Assembly: GCA_947630065.1 (NCBI GenBank)
Contig: CANRGE010000004.1
Location: forward strand, 9,149-73,148
Length of the DNA: 64,000 nucleotides
DNA from: an uncultured Clostridia bacterium
Lineage (GTDB): Bacteria; Bacillota; Clostridia; TANB77; CAG-508
Direction of reading: 5' to 3'
Position numbers and translations under genes: made by a program. Of this stretch, positions 299 to 62,020 are shown in pieces. How positions within the stretch are numbered: the first letter of the stretch is position 1; each line of letters opens with the position of its first letter. Under the pieces are notes generated by a model. It had not been told where the DNA came from. It was given only the letters and a program-made list of their open reading frames with translations, and made no database searches.

Positions 299-304
299 AT
301 ATAG

Positions 305-342
305 GATGTAAAGAAAAGGTCTCGCGAAGCGAGATTTGTTCT
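305..342 (-). repeat. Partial (38-nt) copy of the 5' end of dispersed repeat family 1
   Basis: Its reverse complement, GAACAAATCTCGCTTCGCGAGACCTTTTCTTTACATC, matches the first ~38 nt of the copies at 1014, 3771, 13350, 42467 and 48777. Confidence 0.85.
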
Positions 343-419: not shown

Positions 420-887
420 CTATTTTTTCATTTTTTTTGCATTTGCCTCGCTCATTTTTCTAACTAAAAGCCGAACCGGCGTATAGTGTCCAAAAATTAA
501 GTGAGGATCTTTCTCGGTTGTACACAACTCCTGTACCTGCATAACCAGCTCTTCTTTATGGCCGAAGCCATATAACTCAAACAAATCTTCTGTTCTTATT
601 CCCTGAGTCGTACGAATGACAATGGCGCAAAATGCAAGAACTCGCCTAGCATTTTCACCCAGCACATCATCGATTAAGCCTTCATTTTTCCCGACTTTAA
701 CACGTGCGTGCTTAATTCCATCCGATATTATCTGTTCATGCAGTTCTTTCGTACACCGCAAAATTTCTGTATCAACTGTTTTAAGAGTCTCTTCAGGAAC
801 CACTCCTTTATTAACAACAAGAGTGTAAACAGAGTCTAATACTGTTGGTTTGTAAGCTTCTTCTTTGCGTTTCATAATATAATCCAT
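420..887 (-). CDS. Hypothetical 155-aa protein, compositionally foreign (higher GC)
   Basis: Clean ORF with SD AAAGGAG upstream and its own promoter. A perfect 13-bp hairpin (370-400) lies downstream. It is visibly richer in G+C than its neighbours. No family was recognised and no HUH motif is present. Confidence 0.6.
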   Translation of the reverse strand: MDYIMKRKEEAYKPTVLDSVYTLVVNKGVVPEETLKTVDTEILRCTKELHEQIISDGIKHARVKVGKNEGLIDDVLGENARRVLAFCAIVIRTTQGIRTEDLFELYGFGHKEELVMQVQELCTTEKDPHLIFGHYTPVRLLVRKMSEANAKKMKK

Positions 888-1013: not shown

Positions 1014-1143
1014 GAACAAATCTCGCTTCGCGAGACCTTTTTCTCTACACCTTGAAGTTTGCCATCTAAATTCAAGGTCTCAAAGAAGCGTAAAGATTTG
1101 TTGACGCGAAAATTTACAAAGTAAATTTTCTGTGCAATGTTAT
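1014..1143 (+). repeat. Dispersed structured repeat family 1, copy A
   Basis: About 130 nt, near-identical to copies B-E. Contains the nested stems AACAAATCT/AGATTTGTT, CGCTTC/GAAGCG and GAGACC/GGTCTC, plus the 10-bp hairpin GAAAATTTAC/GTAAATTTTC. Confidence 0.9.
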
Positions 1144-2573: not shown

Positions 2574-3665
2574 TTAAACATTAAATCTAAATAGTACTAT
2601 ATCCCCATCTTGCATAACATATTCTTTTCCTTCTGAACGTAATAAACCTTTTTCTCTTACTGCATTCATAGAACCTTCTCTTATTAAATCATCATATGAA
2701 ACAACCTCTGCTCTTATGAAACCTCTTTCAATGTCAGAATGTATTTTACCCGCTGCTTGTGGTGCTTTTGTTCCTTTCTTTATTGTCCAAGCTCTTACTT
2801 CTGGCTCTCCTGCTGTTAAAAACGACATTAACCCTAGTAGGTCATAACTTGCTTTTATAACTTTATCTAATCCAGATTCCTCTAGACCTAAAGCAGATAA
2901 CATTTCTTTTTTATCGTTTTCATCTAATGATGCTAATTCTTCTTCTATTTTTACGCAAAGTGGTATTACTAAAGCATTTTCAGTTTGTGCATATTCTTTT
3001 ACTTGTTGAATATATGTATCATTTTCAATGTTTTCTAATTGTTCTTCTGATACATTTGCTATATATAGTATTGGCTTTAATGTTAAAAGATATGTATCAT
3101 TTAATAATTCTTTTTCCTCATCAGTTAAATTTAATGTTCTTGCAGACTTTCCTTCTTCTAAAGTTTTTTTCAATTTTTCAAATAAATCAACACTAGCTTG
3201 TTCTTTTTTATCTGCTTTTAACATTTTTTTAGCTCTATCTAATCTTTTTTCTACTGTTTCTAAATCTGCAAAAATAAGCTCTAAATTAATGGTTTCAATA
3301 TCTCTTTTGGGATTAACATTTCCATCAACATGAACAACATTCGCATCTTCAAAACATCTAACAACTTCCACTATACTATCTACTTCTCTTATATGAGATA
3401 AGAATTTATTGCCTAAACCTTCCCCTTTACTAGCACCTTTAACTAATCCTGCAATATCTACAAATTCAATTACAGCATGTGTAGTTTTTTGTGGTTTATA
3501 CATTTGTGTTAATTTATCTAATCTCTCATCTGGAACTGGTACAACTCCAACATTTGGTTCTATTGTACAAAATGGATAGTTAGCACATTCTGCTCCTGCA
3601 TTTGTTATAGCATTAAACATTGTACTTTTTCCTACATTTGGAAGTCCAACTATACCTAATTTCAT
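2574..3665 (-). CDS. ychF: Ribosome-binding ATPase YchF
   Basis: MKLGIVGLPNVGKSTMFNA P-loop, 363 aa, and a TGS-like C-terminus. Confidence 0.92.
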   Translation of the reverse strand: MKLGIVGLPNVGKSTMFNAITNAGAECANYPFCTIEPNVGVVPVPDERLDKLTQMYKPQKTTHAVIEFVDIAGLVKGASKGEGLGNKFLSHIREVDSIVEVVRCFEDANVVHVDGNVNPKRDIETINLELIFADLETVEKRLDRAKKMLKADKKEQASVDLFEKLKKTLEEGKSARTLNLTDEEKELLNDTYLLTLKPILYIANVSEEQLENIENDTYIQQVKEYAQTENALVIPLCVKIEEELASLDENDKKEMLSALGLEESGLDKVIKASYDLLGLMSFLTAGEPEVRAWTIKKGTKAPQAAGKIHSDIERGFIRAEVVSYDDLIREGSMNAVREKGLLRSEGKEYVMQDGDIVLFRFNV

Positions 3666-3770
3666 TATTTATCTACTCCTTTATATATTTACTTTCTATC
3701 GTATTATATATTAATTTTTTTAATCTTTCAACAAGTTAAGTAAAATTTTAATTGCTCTAATAAATTTTAT

Positions 3771-3939
3771 GAACAAATCTCGCTTCGCGAGACCTTTTCT
3801 CTACATCTTAAAGTTTGCTATCTAAATTCAAGGTCTCAAAGAAGCGTAAAGATTTGTTGACGCGAAAATTTACAAAGTAAATTTTCTGTGCAATGTTATT
3901 TAATTATATAATAGGAAAGTAGAACTTTCCTATTATATA
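3771..3939 (+). repeat. Dispersed structured repeat family 1, copy B, plus hairpin 3
   Basis: 129-nt core at 3771-3899, followed 5 nt later by the hairpin TATATAATAGGAAAG-tagaa-CTTTCCTATTATATA (3905-3939). Confidence 0.9.
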
Positions 3940-4009
3940 ATTAACAAAAGAAACTAGATTTGTATACTTATACAATATCTAGCTTCTTTTAGTATTTTGT
4001 TTTTTAATT

Positions 4010-4204
4010 TTAACGCGCTGTTAGACTTTTTGTTATTTCGTTAAGCTCTTGAGTTTTCCTTTTAATTTTTTCATTAAGTTCATCAAGATCTGCTCCTATA
4101 CCCTCTTCGTCGATTTTTCTTGCTACTTCGTCTGTAAGCCGTTTCAACTCTTTAGCTATTGTAGCTCTTTGTTGTTCTTTTTCTTCTTGGCTTTTAAAAA
4201 ACAT
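4010..4204 (-). CDS. Small hypothetical coiled-coil protein (64 aa)
   Basis: ATG at 4204 is preceded by AAAGGAGGAAG. The longer ORF start at 4264 has no SD. Confidence 0.5.
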   Translation of the reverse strand: MFFKSQEEKEQQRATIAKELKRLTDEVARKIDEEGIGADLDELNEKIKRKTQELNEITKSLTAR

Positions 4205-5838: not shown

Positions 5839-5930
5839 TTCTTACCTCCAAGTATTTTTGTAATTTTATCATATTAAATCATAAAAATAAAGTTTTACAG
5901 TTTTATTTTGTCGAAAAATAATAAAAAAAA

Positions 5931-6042
5931 TGAATAGTTAATAATTAATAGTACATAAGTGCTCTTACATCCTATTTATAGTTATTAATTATTCATTCTT
6001 CACTATTCATTATTCACTGCGAATTGTTAAATTCGCACTTAT
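5931..6042. repeat. tRNA-trailer palindromic element T1 (heptamer arms plus GCGAATT hairpin)
   Basis: The inverted arms are built from TGAATAG-like heptamers. It ends with the hairpin GCGAATT-gttaa-AATTCGC and then CACTTATGG. It is homologous to 49696..49822. Confidence 0.8.
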
Positions 6043-6058
6043 GGTGGACAGGGACGGA
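6042..6058 (-). other. Duplicate of the tRNA-Tyr 3' end (16 of 17 nt)
   Basis: TGGTGGACAGGGAcGGA here versus TGGTGGACAGGGAaGGA at 6175-6191. No complete cloverleaf could be built around it. Confidence 0.6.
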
Positions 6059-13349: not shown

Positions 13350-13516
13350 GAACAAATCTCGCTTCGCGAGACCTTTTCTCTACATCTTAAAGTTTGCTAT
13401 CTAAATTCAGGTCTCAAAGAAGCGTAAAGATTTGTTGACGCGAAAATTTACAAAGTAAATTTTCTGTGCAATGTTATTTTTTATATAATAGGAAAGTAGA
13501 ACTTTCCTATTATATA
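13350..13516 (+). repeat. Dispersed structured repeat family 1, copy C, plus hairpin 3
   Basis: 128-nt core at 13350-13477, then 4 nt, then the hairpin TATATAATAGGAAAG-tagaa-CTTTCCTATTATATA (13482-13516). Confidence 0.9.
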
Positions 13517-13638
13517 AAAAATTAATTTAAAATTTTATACTAATATTCATATTTTTGTGTTATAATTTATATAGTGCTTAAATTTTATTTTGAGTAAAAA
13601 TATAATTACATAAGATATTTAGGAGTGAATTTTAAACT

Positions 13639-15114: not shown

Positions 15115-17364
15115 TTAATTTGATAATTGATATTTTGAATACCAGTATCCTTTTAATTGTTCTCCTTCATCTTGTTCGCCATTTCCATTATTATCCCACC
15201 AAAATGCTTCTGGTATCTTATATCCTGCCATTACGTCGGTTCCTGTTCCTTCTATAAATTCAATATCTGCTCTTTGTAATGTTGTATTTAATGAGTATTG
15301 ATAACGTGGTATCCATACAAAATAGCTTTCTGTTTCACCATTTGTTGTTACTATGTTCGCCCACATTTGTCCACTGTAATCATACCAATTTTCTGGAGCT
15401 GGTTCTTTTATAGATATTCTTTTTTCTTGGTCTCCCTCATAAATCACATAATATGTGCAGTCTGGATTAAAAGCACTTACATCTGGAGCATTTATTGCCT
15501 TTGTTGTAAGTTTTTTTGTTACTGCTCCTAAATATTCGTTTGTTTCTGAATTTCTTGCTATTATATTTACCGTATATGTTGTATTTTGTTTTAATCCTCT
15601 ATATACATATTTTTCATCACTCGCTGTTCCTTTTGCATCTGTCATTTTTTTACCATTTAAATAGTATTCATACTTTATTTTTGCATCTTCTGTTATTAGT
15701 GTTCCTGTAATATCTTGCACTCTTATTACATTAGAGCCTGCTACCATTTCTGCATTTATTTTTGGTGAGCTTACATCTGGTGTTAATTGATACTTAGAAT
15801 ACCAATATCCTGTTAGTTGTTCTCCTTCATCTTGTGCTCCATTTCCATTGTTATCCCACCAAAATGCTTCTGGTATTTTATAGCCTGATTCTACTTCTGT
15901 TCCTGTTCCTTTTATAAATTTAACATATGATCTTTTTGAAGTTTGGTCTAAAGTATATTGATAACGTGGTATCCATACAAAGTAACTTTCTAAACCATTA
16001 TTTCTTGTTACTATGTTTGCCCAATTTGCAGTTGTGTAATCATACCACTCATCTGGTGGATCCATACTTATTGGAATTTCATTGTGTTCATTTCCTTGTT
16101 CATCCCAATATACATAGAATGTTGTGTCCGGATCAAATTTAGTAACATCTGGTTCATTTACTTCTGCTGTTTCAAATAAACGTGTCATACTTCCTATTAT
16201 TTCACCATTGGCATCTAATGCTGTTACATTTACTGCTTTATTTCCTTTTGCTAAATTTTTAATAGTATGATTTTCACCATTTTTACTTGTAAATACTTCT
16301 GTTCCATTTATATAGTACTTATATTCGGCAACTTTTGCTTTTACTTCATCACCACTTAATTTTATATTTTCTATTGTTATAGAAGTCATTGATGCAGCCG
16401 TACTATAATCTATAGTATATGTTCCTAAATTTGATAATTGGTATTTAGAATACCAATATCCTGGTAATCTTTCATTTAAATCTTCTACATTATCTCCGTT
16501 ATTATCCCACCAAAATGCTTCTGGTATTTTATAGCCTTGACTATTTAAAACTTCCCAAGTTGTAGTCTCTCCTGTTTCAGCATTTATATAATTATTTTCA
16601 GTGTTTATAAATTTTATATCCATTCGTTGAGTTTTATCTGGGTCTGCCTTATAGCAGTATCTTGGTAGCCACACATAATAGCTTTCTACACCATTATTTT
16701 CTACATATATATTTGCCCAATTTTGATTTTTATAATCATACCAATCGTCATCTGGCTTTTTACTAATCCAATTTCCTGGTACTAAATTATCTCCTTTTAA
16801 TTTTAAATATCTTGTATGTTCTTTTGAAAATCCTGTACTTAATTGTGGTGTACACATGTACAATCCATTTACATTTTCGTAATTACCATTTGTTACTTTT
16901 ATTCCAGAATTACTTTCTGCATTATATTCCCAAATACGTATACCAATATCTTCACACCATTTTACTTGATTTGCATTATTATCTATTTTGTTTTGTGATA
17001 CATAATACAATTTTCCTTCATATACAATGCAATAGTCTTTTTCTTCTTTTCCTACATTTTTCAAAATTTTTCGTATATCTTGTACCTTGTTCGCATCTAA
17101 TTCTATTTCCTCAGTTTGTATTATTTGTTTTAAAACATCTCCTGCATATATATCTGTGCTTTGTTGATCAAGTGTTAGTCCCATAGTATAAAATCCCAAT
17201 TCTTCCGAGATTTGAGACATCTTAGTTTTAAAACGTGCTTCTTCACTTCTACTTAATATACCATCTCCTGCAATAAAATTTATTACTACTGCAGCTAATA
17301 TTAATAATATAATTATAGTTACTATTAAAGCTATTAATGTTATTCCTTTGTTTTTAATATTCAT
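15115..17364 (-). CDS. Large secreted/surface protein with a non-canonical prepilin-like N-terminus and three ~230-aa repeats
   Basis: The N-terminus is MNIKNKGITLIALIVTIIILLILAAV, i.e. G-ITLIA instead of G-FTLIE. The module WYDY..WANI..ESYFVWIPRYQY...GYKIPEAFWWDNNGNG..GYWYSKYQLS occurs three times. The DNA repeats within the gene are about 85% identical. Confidence 0.8.
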   Translation of the reverse strand: MNIKNKGITLIALIVTIIILLILAAVVINFIAGDGILSRSEEARFKTKMSQISEELGFYTMGLTLDQQSTDIYAGDVLKQIIQTEEIELDANKVQDIRKILKNVGKEEKDYCIVYEGKLYYVSQNKIDNNANQVKWCEDIGIRIWEYNAESNSGIKVTNGNYENVNGLYMCTPQLSTGFSKEHTRYLKLKGDNLVPGNWISKKPDDDWYDYKNQNWANIYVENNGVESYYVWLPRYCYKADPDKTQRMDIKFINTENNYINAETGETTTWEVLNSQGYKIPEAFWWDNNGDNVEDLNERLPGYWYSKYQLSNLGTYTIDYSTAASMTSITIENIKLSGDEVKAKVAEYKYYINGTEVFTSKNGENHTIKNLAKGNKAVNVTALDANGEIIGSMTRLFETAEVNEPDVTKFDPDTTFYVYWDEQGNEHNEIPISMDPPDEWYDYTTANWANIVTRNNGLESYFVWIPRYQYTLDQTSKRSYVKFIKGTGTEVESGYKIPEAFWWDNNGNGAQDEGEQLTGYWYSKYQLTPDVSSPKINAEMVAGSNVIRVQDITGTLITEDAKIKYEYYLNGKKMTDAKGTASDEKYVYRGLKQNTTYTVNIIARNSETNEYLGAVTKKLTTKAINAPDVSAFNPDCTYYVIYEGDQEKRISIKEPAPENWYDYSGQMWANIVTTNGETESYFVWIPRYQYSLNTTLQRADIEFIEGTGTDVMAGYKIPEAFWWDNNGNGEQDEGEQLKGYWYSKYQLSN

Positions 17365-17481: not shown

Positions 17482-17514
17482 TACATTAATAAATTTTTAT
17501 TAATAAAGTCTTTT

Positions 17515-17551
17515 AAAAAATAAGAAGCAGAATTTCCTTTTTCCGCCTCTT
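17515..17551 (-). terminator. Terminator after secreted paralog 1
   Basis: Minus strand reads AAGAGGC...GCTTCTT followed by ATTTTTT. Confidence 0.6.
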
Positions 17552-17558
17552 ATTAAAA

Positions 17559-17595
17559 TTATTCACTATTCATTCTTCACTATTAACTATTCACT
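17559..17595 (-). repeat. Heptamer array (TGAATAG-like, 5 units)
   Basis: Minus strand reads GTGAATAG TTAATAG TGAAGAA TGAATAG TGAATAA. It is identical to 18698..18734 and related to the arms of the tRNA-trailer elements. Confidence 0.8.
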
Positions 17596-17662
17596 AGTCG
17601 TCTAGAATCCTTCTCCCACGACAATAACTGCACGGCTGTGCCACGACTTAGCATAACCTGCG

Positions 17663-18301
17663 TCACCTCCGGTTACCAGAGGCCATAGTTGCACCTGCCG
17701 TACCAGCATAACCATAATATGAAAATAAACTGCCACTGTAAGCTCTAACCAACCCAGAAGCATAATCAAAGTTCATCCATGTCATAGAGCCGCCATGCCA
17801 ACCGTTTGTTTCTGTTATTGCATCTCCCACTTTTGCTACATATGAAGTTGTATATGCATTCTTATATTTTCCATTTATCTTTGGATATTTTGATGCACTA
17901 CTAATTGTTCCTGCTGATACCCATTCTTTATTTAATTTTATATATATTCCGCTGTTATTTCCTGTAGTCGTTCCGCCACTTGCTATGTTACTTGGATTTC
18001 CATATGATGATGCTGATAATATTGCCATTGCTCCATATTCTGTATTTTTTTGCATGTGTATGTCTAAGTTATTTGATTTTTCTTTTGTTGATTCTAATGT
18101 AGTTGGATTTATAGTATCTTCTAAGCCTAGGGTTCCTCCTGTTGTTTCCATGTTTCTTATGTTTAATAGCCAGCTCTCTAATGTCTGTGTTGTTCCATCG
18201 TTTCCGTTTGCTTGTAGTGCTGCTTGTGCACTCGTTGGTATTAGCATGCTTATTGCTATTACTATAATTAATATTACTATTAGTTTTTCTTTAATTTTCA
18301 T
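17663..18301 (-). CDS. Secreted protein of unknown function, paralog 1 (212 aa)
   Basis: Sec-type signal peptide (MKIKEKLIVILIIVIAISMLIPTSAQA). About 75% identical to ORF 18802..19443 by eye. Confidence 0.75.
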   Translation of the reverse strand: MKIKEKLIVILIIVIAISMLIPTSAQAALQANGNDGTTQTLESWLLNIRNMETTGGTLGLEDTINPTTLESTKEKSNNLDIHMQKNTEYGAMAILSASSYGNPSNIASGGTTTGNNSGIYIKLNKEWVSAGTISSASKYPKINGKYKNAYTTSYVAKVGDAITETNGWHGGSMTWMNFDYASGLVRAYSGSLFSYYGYAGTAGATMASGNRR

Positions 18302-18498: not shown

Positions 18499-18561
<63 letters not shown>

Positions 18562-18613: not shown

Positions 18614-18642
18614 ATTATATATTTTGGTTTCTTTTTTGTCAA
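18614..18642 (-). promoter_or_regulatory. Perfect consensus sigma-A promoter
   Basis: Minus strand reads TTGACA (18642-18637), a 17-nt spacer, then TATAAT (18619-18614). Confidence 0.75.
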
Positions 18643-18651
18643 CGATTTTTA

Positions 18652-18690
18652 TAAAAAATAAAGAAGCAGAAATTTCTTTTCCGCCTCTTA
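18652..18690 (-). terminator. Terminator after secreted paralog 2
   Basis: Minus strand reads AAGAGGCGG...CTGCTTCTT followed by TATTTTTT. It is paralogous to 17515..17551. Confidence 0.6.
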
Positions 18691-18697
18691 CTTAAAA

Positions 18698-18734
18698 TTA
18701 TTCACTATTCATTCTTCACTATTAACTATTCACT
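18698..18734 (-). repeat. Heptamer array (TGAATAG-like, 5 units)
   Basis: Identical 37-mer to 17559..17595. Confidence 0.8.
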
Positions 18735-18801
18735 AATTATTTAGAATCCTTCTCCCACTACTATTACTGCTCGGCTATGCCACGGCATAGCAAAACCTGC
18801 G

Positions 18802-19443
18802 TCAGCCCCGCTTACCCTCTGTCGTGACCCTAAGATTTGTCGCACCAGCATAACCATAATATGAAAATAAACTGCCACTGTTAGCTCTTATCAACCCAGA
18901 AGCATAATCAACGTTCATCCATGTCGTAGAGCCGCCATGCCAACCGTTTGTTTCTGTTATCGCATCTCCTATTCTTGCTGCATATGAAGTTTTATATATA
19001 TTCTTATATTTTGCATTTACTCCTTTATATCTTGAAGAGTTACTCACAGTCCCTGCTGATACCCATTCTTTATTTATATAAATATATATTCCGCTTTTAT
19101 TTCCCGTTGTTGTTTCATTACTATTTATTTTACTAGGATTTCCATATGATGATGCTGATAATATTGCCATTGCTCCATATTCTGTATTTTTTTGCATGTG
19201 TATGTCTAAATTATTTGGTGTTGTTGCTGTTGATAATAAATTACTTGTATTTATTGTATCTTCTAAGCCTAGTGTTCCTCCTGCTTCTTCCATTTGTCTT
19301 ACGCTTAATAGCCAGTTTTCTAATGTTTGTGTTGTTCCATCGTTTCCGTTTGCTTGTAGTGCTGCTTGTGCATTCGTTGGTATTAGCATGCTTATTGCTA
19401 TTACCATTATTAATAATACTATTAGTTTTTCTTTTGTCTTCAT
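18802..19443 (-). CDS. Secreted protein of unknown function, paralog 2
   Basis: ATG at 19443 is preceded by GGAG. It has a signal peptide (MKTKEKLIVLLIMVIAISMLIPTNAQA) and is paralogous to 17663..18301. Confidence 0.75.
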   Translation of the reverse strand: MKTKEKLIVLLIMVIAISMLIPTNAQAALQANGNDGTTQTLENWLLSVRQMEEAGGTLGLEDTINTSNLLSTATTPNNLDIHMQKNTEYGAMAILSASSYGNPSKINSNETTTGNKSGIYIYINKEWVSAGTVSNSSRYKGVNAKYKNIYKTSYAARIGDAITETNGWHGGSTTWMNVDYASGLIRANSGSLFSYYGYAGATNLRVTTEGKRG

Positions 19444-19982: not shown

Positions 19983-20098
19983 GAAAAACAATCAGTATAT
20001 TGCGTTGTTAGACTTCGGTCAAAATTCTTTCGATTACCACAAAGGTCTATCTCAAGAAATTTTGCCTTGTCTGCCTAGCACTATACTAATTCTTTTTC
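19983..20098 (+). repeat. Palindromic intergenic element, family 2, copy 1
   Basis: Its reverse complement aligns arm for arm with 36941..37057 (GAATTAGTRTAGTGCTAGGCAGACAAGRCAAAATTTCTT...). The central loop differs. Confidence 0.8.
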
Positions 20099-20155
20099 AA
20101 CACATTTTTACAATGTTTTAGCTAATTTTCTCCCTTTCTTAGTATAGTTTTAAAT

Positions 20156-20972: not shown

Positions 20973-21102
20973 TGTAGGGGCGATTTTAATCGCCCGCAAA
21001 TATTTAATTTTATATTTTCTCTTTAATATTAAAGATCTTATAATTTTAATTATTTTATTAAGTAAAATCTTCGAAGAACGGGCGATTAAAATCGCCCCTA
21101 CA
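20973..21102. repeat. Inverted doublet of a GC-rich hairpin (GGGGCGATTTTAATCGCCC)
   Basis: TGTAGGGGCGATTTTAATCGCCCG (20973-20996) and its reverse complement (21079-21102) flank 82 nt of AT-rich DNA. A third copy is at 61997..62020. Confidence 0.85.
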
Positions 21103-21264
21103 CTCCAAATTTATTAAATGCGAAAAATCTATTTTATAAATTTCTTATTATATTGTTTACATTTTTAACTTTATTATTCTTTTTTGTATAAAAAATTTTT
21201 TTTGGTAAACAATAAATTTGTGAATTTAGAATATTCAATTTTGTTAGATTGGAGGGTTCATGTT

Positions 21265-21642
21265 ATGGAAGACAATAAAAGTAATGTTCAAACACAAAGT
21301 GGAACAGGTACAGTTGGTCAAGTAATTTGGAGATTTGTAGCTGCTGCTATAGTCCTTGCTATTACTGCATTTTTCACTCCTGGTTTTACTATTAATAACA
21401 TATGGTCTTTAGCTCTTGCTGCTATAGTTTTAACTATTATAGATTATTTAATTGTAAAATTTACTGGATTAAATGCTAGTCCTTTTGGTAAAGGATTTGT
21501 AGGTTTTGTTCTTTCTGCAGTTGTTCTTTATGTTACTCAATTCTTTGTTGCTGGCTATGCTATTTCTTGGATTGCCGCAATTATAGGAGCAATTGTATAT
21601 GGTGTTGTTGATTATTTTATACCTGGCGATAATAAATTGTAA
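21265..21642 (+). CDS. Small multi-pass membrane protein (holin-4/DUF360-like, uncertain)
   Basis: ATG at 21265 lies 8 nt after GGAGGG. Three to four hydrophobic helices. Confidence 0.5.
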   Translation: MEDNKSNVQTQSGTGTVGQVIWRFVAAAIVLAITAFFTPGFTINNIWSLALAAIVLTIIDYLIVKFTGLNASPFGKGFVGFVLSAVVLYVTQFFVAGYAISWIAAIIGAIVYGVVDYFIPGDNKL

Positions 21643-29272: not shown

Positions 29273-29440
29273 TTTTAAAACATTCCTTTCTTTGGTGTAT
29301 ATCACCTGTAATTAATTTATAAGCATCCATAATGCCTATGACTTTTTTATTTTATCACTATGGTTTAATTTGTCAATAATTTTAAAAATTTTTTTCATCT
29401 TTTTATATTGAATTTTTAAAAATATATTAAACTTACTTTT

Positions 29441-29477
29441 TTGTATAACAGGAAAGTTCTACTCTACTGTCATACAA
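29441..29477. repeat. Diverged solo copy of hairpin 3
   Basis: TTGTATAACAGGAAAGTTCTACTCTACTGTCATACAA compared with TATATAATAGGAAAGTTCTACTTTCCTATTATATA. Confidence 0.5.
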
Positions 29478-29506
29478 AAAGAAGCGATAACAAATCGCTT
29501 CTTTTT
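29476..29506. terminator. Bidirectional terminator
   Basis: AAAAAGAAGCGAT-aacaa-ATCGCTTCTTTTT. Confidence 0.8.
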
Positions 29507-29517
29507 GTGAAAAATCA

Positions 29518-30213
29518 TTATAAAATTTCTAATAATTGTTTTATTTCAGAAATTTCATAAGTAGGAACAATATTAGGAAAATCTTTTTTGTTTAAGTTTC
29601 TTGTATTAAACCACACAGATTTAATTCCTGCATTATTTGCCATTTTAATATCTGTTGTTAAAGAATCTCCTATCATAATAAATTTGGATTTTTCCTCATT
29701 TTTTATGATTCTTTCAATGTTTGCTACATTGGGTTTAAAATACGCACCATCACAGCAGAAAATATCATTGAATAATTCCATATATCCGCCTTTTCTTAAG
29801 TATATTATTTGCTGAGCATAAAACCAATCTGTTAATCCATACTGAATGTATCCTCTTTTTGCACATTCTTCTACTACTTTTTTACTGTTTGTATAGAAAT
29901 CAATTTTATCATTTGAAATCCAAACTTCTAAAAATTGCTCTCCTGTAATATTATATTGTTTTATAAAAGTAAGATTCTCTTCTATGCATTTTATCATTAC
30001 ATCTTTGGTTATTACTCTGTCTTGCAAATATGTTGTGTAATTTAAAGAAAATTTTTGAAATTGTTTCATGTATTCTTCTGTGTATGGTATTTGCAATTTA
30101 GAAATAAGTCTTCTAAATTCCCGCAAATGATTGTGTCCCCATAATGTCCAGTCAAAATCCCAAATTAGTACTTCAACTTCTTCTAGCCGTTTTGCATTAA
30201 TTGCTCCTTTCAT
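29518..30213 (-). CDS. HAD-superfamily hydrolase (putative)
   Basis: LIWDFDWTLW (DxD motif I) and MIGDSLTTDI (motif IV-like). Confidence 0.6.
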   Translation of the reverse strand: MKGAINAKRLEEVEVLIWDFDWTLWGHNHLREFRRLISKLQIPYTEEYMKQFQKFSLNYTTYLQDRVITKDVMIKCIEENLTFIKQYNITGEQFLEVWISNDKIDFYTNSKKVVEECAKRGYIQYGLTDWFYAQQIIYLRKGGYMELFNDIFCCDGAYFKPNVANIERIIKNEEKSKFIMIGDSLTTDIKMANNAGIKSVWFNTRNLNKKDFPNIVPTYEISEIKQLLEIL

Positions 30214-36907: not shown

Positions 36908-36940
36908 AATTTCATTCCTTTCTAATGTACAATTATAGTT

Positions 36941-37057
36941 AAAAAAGAATTAGTGTAGTGCTAGGCAGACAAGACAAAATTTCTTAAGATTTACAGTTTT
37001 TATCCTCTAAAAAATTTTGTCCGTAGTCTAACAACTTAAATATGCTAATTCTTTTTT
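36941..37057 (-). repeat. Palindromic intergenic element, family 2, copy 2
   Basis: Matches the reverse complement of 19983..20098 along both arms. Confidence 0.8.
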
Positions 37058-42125: not shown

Positions 42126-42339
42126 TAGATTAAACCTCCTTATATTTAACATGTATAAAGAGTGGGATTTGTTCCCACTCTTCTGTTTTTCATATTTGCT
42201 TTATTATTATACCCACTTTTTACCAAAAAATCAAGTATTTTTCGAAATTTTGCGATTTTTATTTTTCTATTTTATGTATAACTTTGAAAAGTAACCTAAC
42301 AATACACTCTAAAAAAAGCAATATGATAAGATAAAAAAT

Positions 42340-42467
42340 TAACATTGCACAGAAAATTTACAAAGTAAATTTTCGCGTCAACAAATCTTTACGCTTCTTT
42401 GAGACCTTGAATTTAGATAGCAAACTTTAAGATGTAGAGAAAAGGTCTCGCAAAGCGAGATTTGTTC
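42340..42467 (-). repeat. Dispersed structured repeat family 1, copy D (nested in another hairpin)
   Basis: 128-nt core in reverse orientation. It is flanked by AAAGCAATATGATAAG (42315-42330) and CTTATTATATTGCTTT (42469-42484), which are complementary to each other. Confidence 0.9.
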
Positions 42468-42527
42468 TCTTATTATATTGCTTTATGTAATAAATTTCTT
42501 TATACATTTATATAAACCTTTTATTTA

Positions 42528-48490: not shown

Positions 48491-48608
48491 GTAGTTTGCT
48501 CCTTTCATTTTTTTAACTCAATTTATAATTTTACTTTAATATCATACAATACAATCTAAAAAATAGCAAGAATTTATCAAAAAGTTTTTTTAATATAATA
48601 GATTTTTT

Positions 48609-48777
48609 TATATAATAGGAAAGTTCTACTTTCCTATTATATAAAAAAATAACATTGCACAGAAAATTTACTTTGTAAATTTTCGCGTCAACAAATCTTT
48701 ACGCTTCTTTGAGACCTTGAATTTAGATAGCAAACTTTAAGATGTAGAGAAAAGGTCTCGTGAAGCGAGATTTGTTC
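48609..48777 (-). repeat. Dispersed structured repeat family 1, copy E, plus hairpin 3
   Basis: Hairpin 3 at 48609-48643, 5 nt, then the 129-nt core at 48649-48777 in reverse orientation. Confidence 0.9.
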
Positions 48778-48872
48778 TTCGTATTGATTGTTTTCCTATT
48801 TTATTACTTTTATATACTATTCTAATAGTCATACTAATTTATTAACGGTGTTCAAATTGAACACCGTTTTGG

Positions 48873-49613: not shown

Positions 49614-49695
49614 ACGATATTTTTGTCATTACAATAGACATAAAAACTCCTTTAAATAGAAATAAATTAAATAATAACTGGATCTAAAAAATTTT

Positions 49696-49822
49696 AGTGA
49701 AGAGTGAATAACGAATAGTTAATAGTTAATAGTACATAAGTGCTCCTAGAGCCTTTTTATAATTATTAACTATTCACTCTTCACTATTAATTATTCACTG
49801 CGAATTGTTAAATTCGCACTTA
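49696..49822. repeat. tRNA-trailer palindromic element T2
   Basis: Inverted heptamer arms (TGAAGAG TGAATAA CGAATAG TTAATAG ...), then the GCGAATT hairpin and CACTTATGG, directly abutting the tRNA-Leu 3' end. Homologous to 5931..6042. Confidence 0.8.
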
Positions 49823-49905
49823 TGGTACCGATGGTGGGACTCGAACCCACATGGTTTCCCGAACGATTTTGAGTCGTTTGCGTCTGCCAATTCCGCCACA
49901 TCGGC
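49823..49905 (-). tRNA. tRNA-Leu (CAA)
   Basis: GCCGATGTGGCGGAATTGGCAGACGC..., anticodon loop CT-CAA-AA, variable arm, T-loop GGTTCGAGTCC, CCA encoded. Confidence 0.85.
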
Positions 49906-61284: not shown

Positions 61285-61913
<629 letters not shown>

Positions 61914-61996: not shown

Positions 61997-62020
61997 CGGG
62001 CGATTAAAATCGCCCCTACA
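61997..62020 (+). repeat. Third copy of the GC-rich hairpin CGGGCGATTAAAATCGCCCCTACA
   Basis: Identical to 21079..21102, with similar 5' flanks (TTYGAAGAR). Confidence 0.85.

Follow-up and report, generated by a model that had tools for sequence, protein, structure and literature searches.

SPRITE and BOX are small interspersed repeats of Streptococcus pneumoniae (Croucher et al. 2011, PMC3049150). Classical MITEs are defined by terminal inverted repeats and by target-site duplications from the transposase of a related insertion sequence (PMC10969869, PMC2229807). Small interspersed repeats affect how transcription units are built and cause metagenome assemblies to break, and they are almost unstudied in uncultured gut Clostridia. 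Some other systems also have to be kept in mind. The IS200/IS605-derived PATEs and the REP/REPIN elements have similar hairpins at both ends and insert 3' of a fixed tetra- or pentanucleotide, REPs being recognizable by a GTAG-type 5' motif. REPs are palindromes of 20-40 nt set in inverted pairs, and the RAYT gene of such a system has REPs on its flanks. Integron attC sites follow the consensus R''(RYYYAAC) ... R'(GTTRRRY) at the outer ends of their stem and occur in cassette arrays. Here, we analyzed a repeat in a stretch of 64,000 nucleotides from an uncultured Clostridia bacterium (hereafter the window). The repeat family is real, well structured, and previously undescribed, and it is best read as belonging to a known class, the bacterial small interspersed repeats. 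The explanation that we favor, and consider reasonably probable, is a lineage-restricted, non-autonomous small interspersed repeat of ~175-180 bp, made of three hairpin modules, inserted in intergenic DNA and moved by a factor acting in trans.

The genes of the window are core housekeeping genes (rpmF, ychF, M18 peptidase, tsf, rpsB, thrS, pgi, dapA, dapB, and rimP). In the species collection, the YchF closest to that of the window shares 84% identity with it, and those that come next are Oscillospiraceae- and Ruminococcaceae-like. An earlier note, made from the nucleotides of the window, had described five intergenic copies of a repeat of about 129 nt, more than 90% identical, and a 38-nt fragment at 305-342. 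Using BLAST and alignments, we found the five full copies where they had been placed, at 1014-1143, 3771-3899, and 13350-13477 on the plus strand and at 42340-42467 and 48649-48777 on the minus strand, every one of them intergenic and 96.9-100% identical to copy B, on which the finding had been centered. The fragment is real and on the minus strand, but it covers 40 nt at 302-341 and is 95% identical. The repeat is likewise real, but the true unit is longer than proposed, about 175-180 nt: the similarity extends ~45 nt past the claimed end, and a hairpin of 20 bp, called H in the following, is found there in three of the five copies (B, C, and E). With a covariance model based on 23 diverse copies, we recovered the five copies and a decayed one, for a total of five full and two partial copies in 64 kb (Table 1). 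The motif GAAAATTTAC-NNN-GTAAATTTTC of the second hairpin (SL2) matches the window five times and has no match in 100 dinucleotide-preserving shuffles. Chance similarity or an assembly artifact could be invoked, since all sequences come from metagenome assemblies. Yet the five occurrences observed against none in the shuffles, and the presence of the element with lineage-specific compensatory variants in independent samples and assemblies, make this explanation negligible.

Table 1. Copies of the repeat in the window, with the positions of the long interrupted stem (SL1), the second hairpin (SL2), and the third hairpin (H).
Copy	Position	Strand	SL1	SL2	H	Score	Remarks
A	1014..1143	+	1015-1102	1106-1135	none	150.8 bits	
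B	3771..3944	+	3772-3858	3862-3891	3899-3940	203.5 bits	copy of the original finding; linker TTGACGCG
C	13350..13526	+	13351-13436	13440-13469	13474-13521	197.3 bits	
D	42340..42469	-	42380-42466	42347-42376	none		SL2 loop flipped to TTT
E	48599..48779	-	48690-48776	48657-48686	48603-48652	204.5 bits	
5' fragment	302..341	-					element positions 1-40: small hairpin TCTCGC-TTC-GCGAGA and CCTTTTCTTTAC
Decayed copy	29432..29520	-				33 bits, E = 5e-6	covariance model

The partial copies and the arrangement of the full ones deserve some comments. The decayed copy contains AAAAAGAAGCGATTTGTTATCGCTTCTTTTT, a remnant of the 3' side of SL1 that is now shaped like an intrinsic terminator, followed by a degenerate H hairpin. 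The orientations of the full copies follow the order + + + - - along the window, for which we considered replication Ter-like sites. We rejected them because the element is far too long and the GC skew shows no switch. The 5' fragment and copy A stand 5'-to-5' across a GC-richer orphan ORF (420-887, minus strand). This ORF of 155 aa has a GC content clearly above its surroundings and a strong promoter-like site (TTGACA-17-TAAAAT). Pfam gave no match for it, 5.8 billion proteins included no close relative, and 1.84 billion cluster representatives yielded six remote ones (32-40% identity).

The window holds other repeats. A dispersed repeat unrelated to the three-hairpin element is present as 98-nt inverted copies at 20004-20101 and 36938-37035 (83% complementary). 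A 120-nt repeat (5926-6045 and 49707-49826, 91% identical) lies just downstream of tRNA genes, a tRNA-Tyr cluster and a tRNA-Leu, and an inverted repeat of 36 nt (49686-49795) is part of its second copy. A GC-rich palindrome, GGGCGATT-NN-AATCGCCC, unusual at 27% GC, occurs at 20978-20995, 21080-21097, and 61998-62015. Two inverted copies of it flank ~85 nt at 20975-21110 in a REPIN-like arrangement, at the exact place that the three-hairpin element occupies in two loci of other genomes (L022 and L033). GT/AC tracts, (GT)14 and (GT)18, lie at 18513-18540 and 61848-61884. On the minus strand each follows an ATG directly, as ATGAAAAGCATTGAGGCTGTA(AC)n GAATAGG and ATGAAAAATGTTAAAATTGTTGAAACTGTA(AC)n GAATAGG, and precedes one of a set of paralogous small genes (repeat families D7 and D13), which looks like slipped-strand phase variation. 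Finally, a 749-aa ORF lacking a Pfam match (15115-17364, minus strand) has three tandem internal repeats of ~660 nt. Beside it, a duplicated segment of ~500 nt (17494-17995 and 18633-19137) gives paralogous ORFs of 212 and 227 aa, also without Pfam matches.

The full unit consists of SL1, an invariant linker (TTGACGCG), SL2, a tail (CTGTGCAATG), and H, in this order. Its left edge is AGAACAAATCT, and its right edge is either CTGTGCAATG or an H ending in A6. SL1 is a long interrupted stem, for which the earlier note gave 21 bp around a 37-nt loop; RNAfold gives 9+6+8 = 23 bp around a 33-nt loop. SL2 is a hairpin of 10-13 bp: the perfect 10-bp hairpin reported before is there, and three further pairs extend it to 13 bp. 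The alignment of the copies also shows the variable tip of the first hairpin (TTCG, TTTG, or TTCA) and the flipped SL2 loop of copy D (AAA to TTT), both as first noticed. H has the general form T6-NNNN-TATAGGAAA-loop-TTTCCTATA-NNNN-A6, and the version in the window is a perfect 20-bp hairpin, TTTTTT-ATATAATAGGAAAG-TAGAA-CTTTCCTATTATAT-AAAAAA. In the window it is found only beside the element and in a constant relative orientation. The arms of SL1, SL2, and H are internal inverted repeats, the three hairpins have no sequence relation to one another, and their order makes the unit asymmetric. As RNA, the fold has a z-score (ViennaRNA) of -4.7 on either strand, and as DNA one of -4.0. A local fold is also possible for the first 35 nt, namely TCTCGC-TTC-GCGAGA followed by the nearly invariant CCTTTTCTC; this small hairpin and its T-rich tract are flagged as terminator-like on both strands and compete with SL1. 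An intrinsic terminator has a U-run after a GC-rich stem. H, when examined as one, has the T6 before the stem and the A6 after it on both strands, the two runs pairing together, and is not of terminator type.

The element has neither a gene nor a conserved internal promoter, as had been proposed. Its only ATG-initiated ORF has 9 codons and is not conserved across subfamilies, and we rejected a type I toxin or another small ORF on these grounds. We likewise discarded an internal sigma-70 promoter: no conserved -10 accompanies the invariant TTGACG at 15-18 nt on either strand, and only the rabbit subtype has the TATAAT within H. A fragment of a group IIC intron was considered since the element abuts terminators, and was rejected for lack of a GUGYG 5' end and of a domain-V-like hairpin.

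The structure of the element is under selection: all three helices covary. RNAalifold on 23 sequences predicted 51 pairs, 18 of them with compensatory changes. In an alignment of 45 sequences, 97.2% of the cells of the 51 pairs are paired, against 39-54% when the partners are slid, and double changes affect 30 of the 51 pairs, against 10-13 with slid partners. None of 500 shuffles reached the observed pairing values. These pair counts should be interpreted with caution, since the 45-sequence alignment was fitted to the model itself and since the model paired unrelated terminators in copies lacking H. The individual helices vary in different ways. SL2 has two versions, GAAAATTTAC/GTAAATTTTC and GAAAAATTGC/GCAATTTTTC, both fully compensated. 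In H, the outer 4-5 bp are free to vary yet remain complementary, and the core TATAGGAAA/TTTCCTATA is fixed. SL1 keeps its base AACAAATCT/AGATTTGTT, and its interior may consist of other complementary sequence or be no more than a minimal hairpin. The loops of SL2 come as reverse-complement pairs (AAA/TTT and ATA/TAT), which is typical of hairpin inversion at the level of DNA and speaks against an RNA whose function depends on the loop. A G.U pair (read on the element strand) has been retained at the base of SL2 in 40 of the 45 copies, and G.U exceeds A.C by 20:7 in SL1, the ratio in H being symmetric at 14:10. The evidence leans to the element strand as the folding strand, with the reservation that a model-based alignment itself favors G.U.

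The covariation raises the question of whether the repeat is a multicopy gene for a trans-acting sRNA, with a promoter upstream that would drive transcription on the element strand and a terminator after H that would end it. An independent gene of this kind should have a promoter conserved at a fixed distance and a terminator of its own. The covariation of all three helices, the conserved G.U at the base of SL2, and the excess of G.U over A.C in SL1 would fit such a gene. So would the intrinsic-terminator-like hairpin that lies 3' of nearly every copy on the element strand, the better conservation of orthologous copies than of their flanks, and the TGnTAnAAT-like motifs that precede the first base by ~7 nt in copies A and B. 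In copies A and D the terminator-like hairpin uses the element's own tail. The conserved tail GTGCAATG of copy A (1133-1140) can pair with CATTGCAC (1164-1171), which is followed by TTT and lies in the last codons of the adjoining peptidase gene. In copy D the tail GCAATG pairs with a downstream ATATTGC followed by T7, giving a terminator-like hairpin at ~42314-42345. However, each downstream terminator has a sequence of its own and is usually that of the convergent gene (the hairpin 3' of copy B, at about 3950-3990, is itself unique). A terminator-like hairpin with a U-tract in the first 35 nt would stop most transcripts early, and an RNA whose loop has a specific function would not tolerate the loop flips of SL2. 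In several copies a promoter would not fit, copy C lying only 8 nt past a stop codon. The upstream flanks are unrelated, and in the 39 examined we found no conserved promoter and no positional enrichment of -10-like hexamers, which weakens the small RNA that had been suggested as an alternative to a mobile element. We regard it as fairly unlikely.

The local fold of the 5' end suggests another function in RNA, a cis-acting switch or attenuator in which SL1 would compete with the small hairpin (TCTCGC-TTC-GCGAGA followed by CCUUUUCUC) and thereby control read-through to or from the neighbors. The small hairpin and its T-rich tract look like a terminator on both strands, and CTTTTCTC is nearly invariant in spite of lying in the "loop" of SL1. 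Three linked changes in loci L035 and L032 (C13A, G21U, and C71A) preserve both folds, and some copies lie directly in 5' leaders (L033, L022, L019, and L057). Yet the small hairpin is paired in 78.5% of the cases, against 75.6% after shuffling, its covariation score is equalled by one slid control, and it is absent from several subfamilies (L026, L028, L037, L040:3067, and L057). The neighboring genes are functionally unrelated, and the element is found in both orientations and on both sides of genes. A switch function is possible under the predicted folds, and we consider it very unlikely.

The family has a narrow range. We found its relatives by exact-pattern scans of one genome per species, and the covariance model identified about 45 full or nearly full copies in ~25 MAGs among the collected loci. 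Chance matches aside, the hosts are uncultured Clostridia, Clostridium, or Eubacteriales MAGs of animal guts, from rabbit ("Lapin"), "BRZ," mouse (MGBC), and rumen (RUG) sources. Only four further copies were present in the JGI/ENA metagenome collection, viral contigs gave no match, and a BLAST search of plasmid and phage records returned nothing beyond a chance match of 43 nt. The repeat had been said to belong to no recognizable family. This agrees with Rfam 15, which at the gathering threshold reports only four tRNAs in the window; in a permissive scan of 3600-4100 the best model, FuFi-1, reached 15 bits, its threshold being 59.6. Nor did the sequence turn up in a literal search of a collection of papers, and hence no described repeat or ncRNA family corresponds to the element among Rfam, the plasmid and phage records, and these papers.

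The neighbors of the copies are unrelated housekeeping genes, which, judged from N-terminal sequences, include rpoB, serS, tyrS, folD, infC, rplA/rplJ, gap, and fabI. Usually a copy has the intrinsic terminator of one gene on one side and the promoter of the next gene on the other, and often older copies of the element beside it. H is usually followed by a unique hairpin with an A-run and a T-run, the neighbor's own bidirectional terminator. The native promoters of ychF and of ORF 420-887 lie about 40 nt beyond the 5' end of the element (for ychF, the -35 is at 3731, 40 nt beyond copy B). Where both neighbors run in the same direction, the element is antisense in 21 cases and sense in 5. Copies C and D are placed between a stop codon and the first terminator-like hairpin, copy C beginning 8 nt past the end of dapA and in the same sense. 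At other loci the element comes close to the start of a gene: between rplA and rplJ it is ~22 nt from the Shine-Dalgarno sequence (L057), in L019 it is 12 nt from one, and in L033 and L022 one directly follows H. By its position, the element must be transcribed along with its neighbors in several of these places. In the orthologous pair L026/L028 the element with H is 98-100% identical, the flanking coding DNA is 87-98% identical per segment compared, and the upstream intergenic DNA is about 58% identical. This suggests constraint or conversion after insertion.

The distribution of the copies carries the case for movement. The earlier note had proposed a MITE- or REPIN-like non-autonomous mobile element. 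A mobile non-coding repeat agrees with the distribution, whereas the labels MITE and REPIN do not agree with the structure of the ends and with the lack of a RAYT in the collected loci. Boundaries are sharp: the flanks are unrelated from the first bases to the left of AGAAC and to the right of the A-run. Comparing orthologous intergenic regions, we found the element absent from the ychF/pepM18 sites of relatives: none of 80 ychF loci of related species has a copy, and in the three that keep the ychF-pepM18 order a plain terminator or a short promoter region replaces copies A and B. The reverse is seen in L022 and L033, which have the element directly before a small membrane-protein gene whose orthologue in the window (21184-21642) is preceded by a different intergenic sequence lacking the element. 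The copies are thus not syntenic and fixed in all relatives, since both kinds of orthologous sites differ. Furthermore, after the hemN-like gene that L021 and L034 share, the element points in opposite directions, a newer copy of rabbit type lies immediately after an older-type SL2'+H' in L005, and the left flanks of L003, L004, and L011 hold remnants of older copies. L014, L002, and L001 share the 129-nt core of copy B at 100% identity, and the PGI gene adjoining the L014 copy is only 81% identical to that of the window; all data come from MAGs, where mis-binning could inflate identity across species, though the flank of L014 is clearly that of another species. The element has therefore inserted repeatedly and recently into the intergenic DNA of a low-GC clade of uncultured gut Clostridia. 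Assemblies of the species from other samples end within the repeat, which also speaks for movement. Within the species we saw no polymorphism of filled and empty sites: same-species contigs from other samples all have copies B and C, and contigs whose flanking proteins are identical show the copy or end in it. We infer mobile, non-autonomous behavior from the distribution only.

We found no recurrent or matching direct repeat in the 16 nt to the left and the 20 nt to the right of about 38 copies, although the A-runs blur the right boundary and a duplication of 1-2 bp is possible. The left flank shows only a loose "AG" preference. An att core or target duplication at TTTCCTAT was considered and rejected: where the motif occurs in left flanks it is the remnant of an older copy of H, and the position of the junction varies. 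Searching ~320 kb of collected loci with phmmer, we found no Y1 transposase, HUH, or RAYT protein; the best match (E = 0.002) lies in a candidate serine recombinase gene, judged by eye. We saw no autonomous IS with the same ends in these loci and no recurrent partner gene, the neighbors forming no repeated family.

One could also see the repeat as a DNA-level site used by the host chromosome, for recombination or attachment, for protein binding, or for cruciform formation. H is a perfect 20-bp palindrome (T6-stem-A6) that is no terminator on either strand and has a symmetric G.U:A.C ratio (14:10), the loop inversions point to DNA hairpin dynamics, and the invariant TTGACGCG and CTGTGCAAT look like putative sequence-specific contact sites. 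In L026, L028, and L148 the element lies ~66 nt from a candidate large serine recombinase gene identified by eye. However, this recombinase-like neighbor is found at a single orthologous locus and no partner gene recurs elsewhere. Binding to duplex DNA needs no compensatory changes at the variable positions of stems, and the integron attC consensus and cassette arrays are both lacking. We judge a host site of this kind to be distinctly improbable. The candidate recombinase gene itself (5449-6348 in L026, 725-1396 in L028, and ~330-1170 in L148) is divergent from the element, which lies upstream of it. There are tRNA genes nearby, and the locus may be the edge of an integrated element.

Several described types of element were examined as identities for the repeat. 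A classical MITE was rejected because the inverted repeats are internal and none is terminal, the asymmetric unit has no visible duplication, and no parent IS came to light in the collected loci. As for REP/REPIN-RAYT systems, the arms of SL1 are not REP palindromes (the 3' arm is not itself palindromic), and the collected loci contain no Y1 or RAYT gene. A PATE of the IS200/IS605 type does not agree with the unrelated 5' and 3' hairpins and with a left flank that has merely the loose "AG" preference. An attC site was discarded because the AAC/GTT at the outer stem end has the wrong polarity, GTTGACG is unlike GTTRRRY, and the copies are dispersed among housekeeping genes.

How, then, might the small interspersed repeat that we favor move and persist? 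Because the element carries no gene, a factor encoded elsewhere would have to move it. Recognition would be of folded single-stranded DNA or of RNA, and not by a classical cut-and-paste transposase, because there are no terminal inverted repeats, no target duplication, and three hairpins kept by compensatory changes. This hairpin-recognition mechanism is a guess, given that the ~320 kb of loci include no Y1/HUH gene and the two ends lack similar hairpins. After insertion, the hairpins would most likely be passive RNA-structure modules affecting termination, processing, or stability. This role would explain both the conservation of orthologous copies and the predominance of one orientation. The conservation of orthologous copies, the G.U pair in 40 of 45 copies, and the 20:7 ratio in SL1 fit a selected RNA as well as a selfish element. 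A bolder reading is that of a new class of structured nucleic-acid module, either a multicopy RNA with its own function under purifying selection or a hairpin-guided mobile element moved by a type of enzyme not yet linked to such repeats. The second version would explain how identical copies occur at ~81% gene identity despite the lack of a gene, terminal inverted repeats, and target duplications. We think that a new class is rather unlikely.

Taken as a small interspersed repeat, the family has several uses. It supplies a well-defined covariance model for annotating MAGs of gut Clostridia and is a marker of recent DNA exchange between species that co-reside in the rabbit gut. It also shows cleanly that a repeat can spread with neither terminal inverted repeats nor target duplications. 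If the mobilizing factor were shown, or if the hairpins were shown to set the behavior of terminators or leaders (ychF, dapA-dapB, and rplJ), this would be of specialist interest.

Finally, we can place the element among the known systems. With the PATE and REP/REPIN-RAYT systems it shares asymmetry, hairpins near the ends, the lack of a target duplication, and hairpins under selection. Like the MITEs RUP, Correia/CREE, and ERIC, it is small, non-coding, multicopy, and intergenic (with a unit of 130-180 bp) and has stable hairpins. These MITEs are co-transcribed with their neighbors and can supply terminators or promoters (PMC10969869, PMC2229807); by its position, our element would share the co-transcription. 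The closest analogues are the pneumococcal SPRITE and BOX, in a resemblance of kind and not of homology. The element is like both in being shorter than 200 bp, AT-rich, and gene-less, in having tens of copies with predicted long stem-loops, and in being confined to one species group. It is like them also in lying near the 3' ends of genes and terminators (PMC3049150), and in that copies cluster and insert beside one another, SPRITE and BOX also inserting into each other (PMC10969869). SPRITE, too, yielded neither a target duplication nor an IS to match it (PMC3049150). As in BOX, the structure is modular, and here the interior of SL1 or the whole of H may be absent. SPRITE differs in having one 18-bp duplex with a U-rich tract and AAAA/TTTT ends, whereas our element has three helices and an H with T's before and A's after the stem that is no terminator. 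The dominant orientation, antisense to neighbors that run in the same direction, also sets it apart from SPRITE and BOX.
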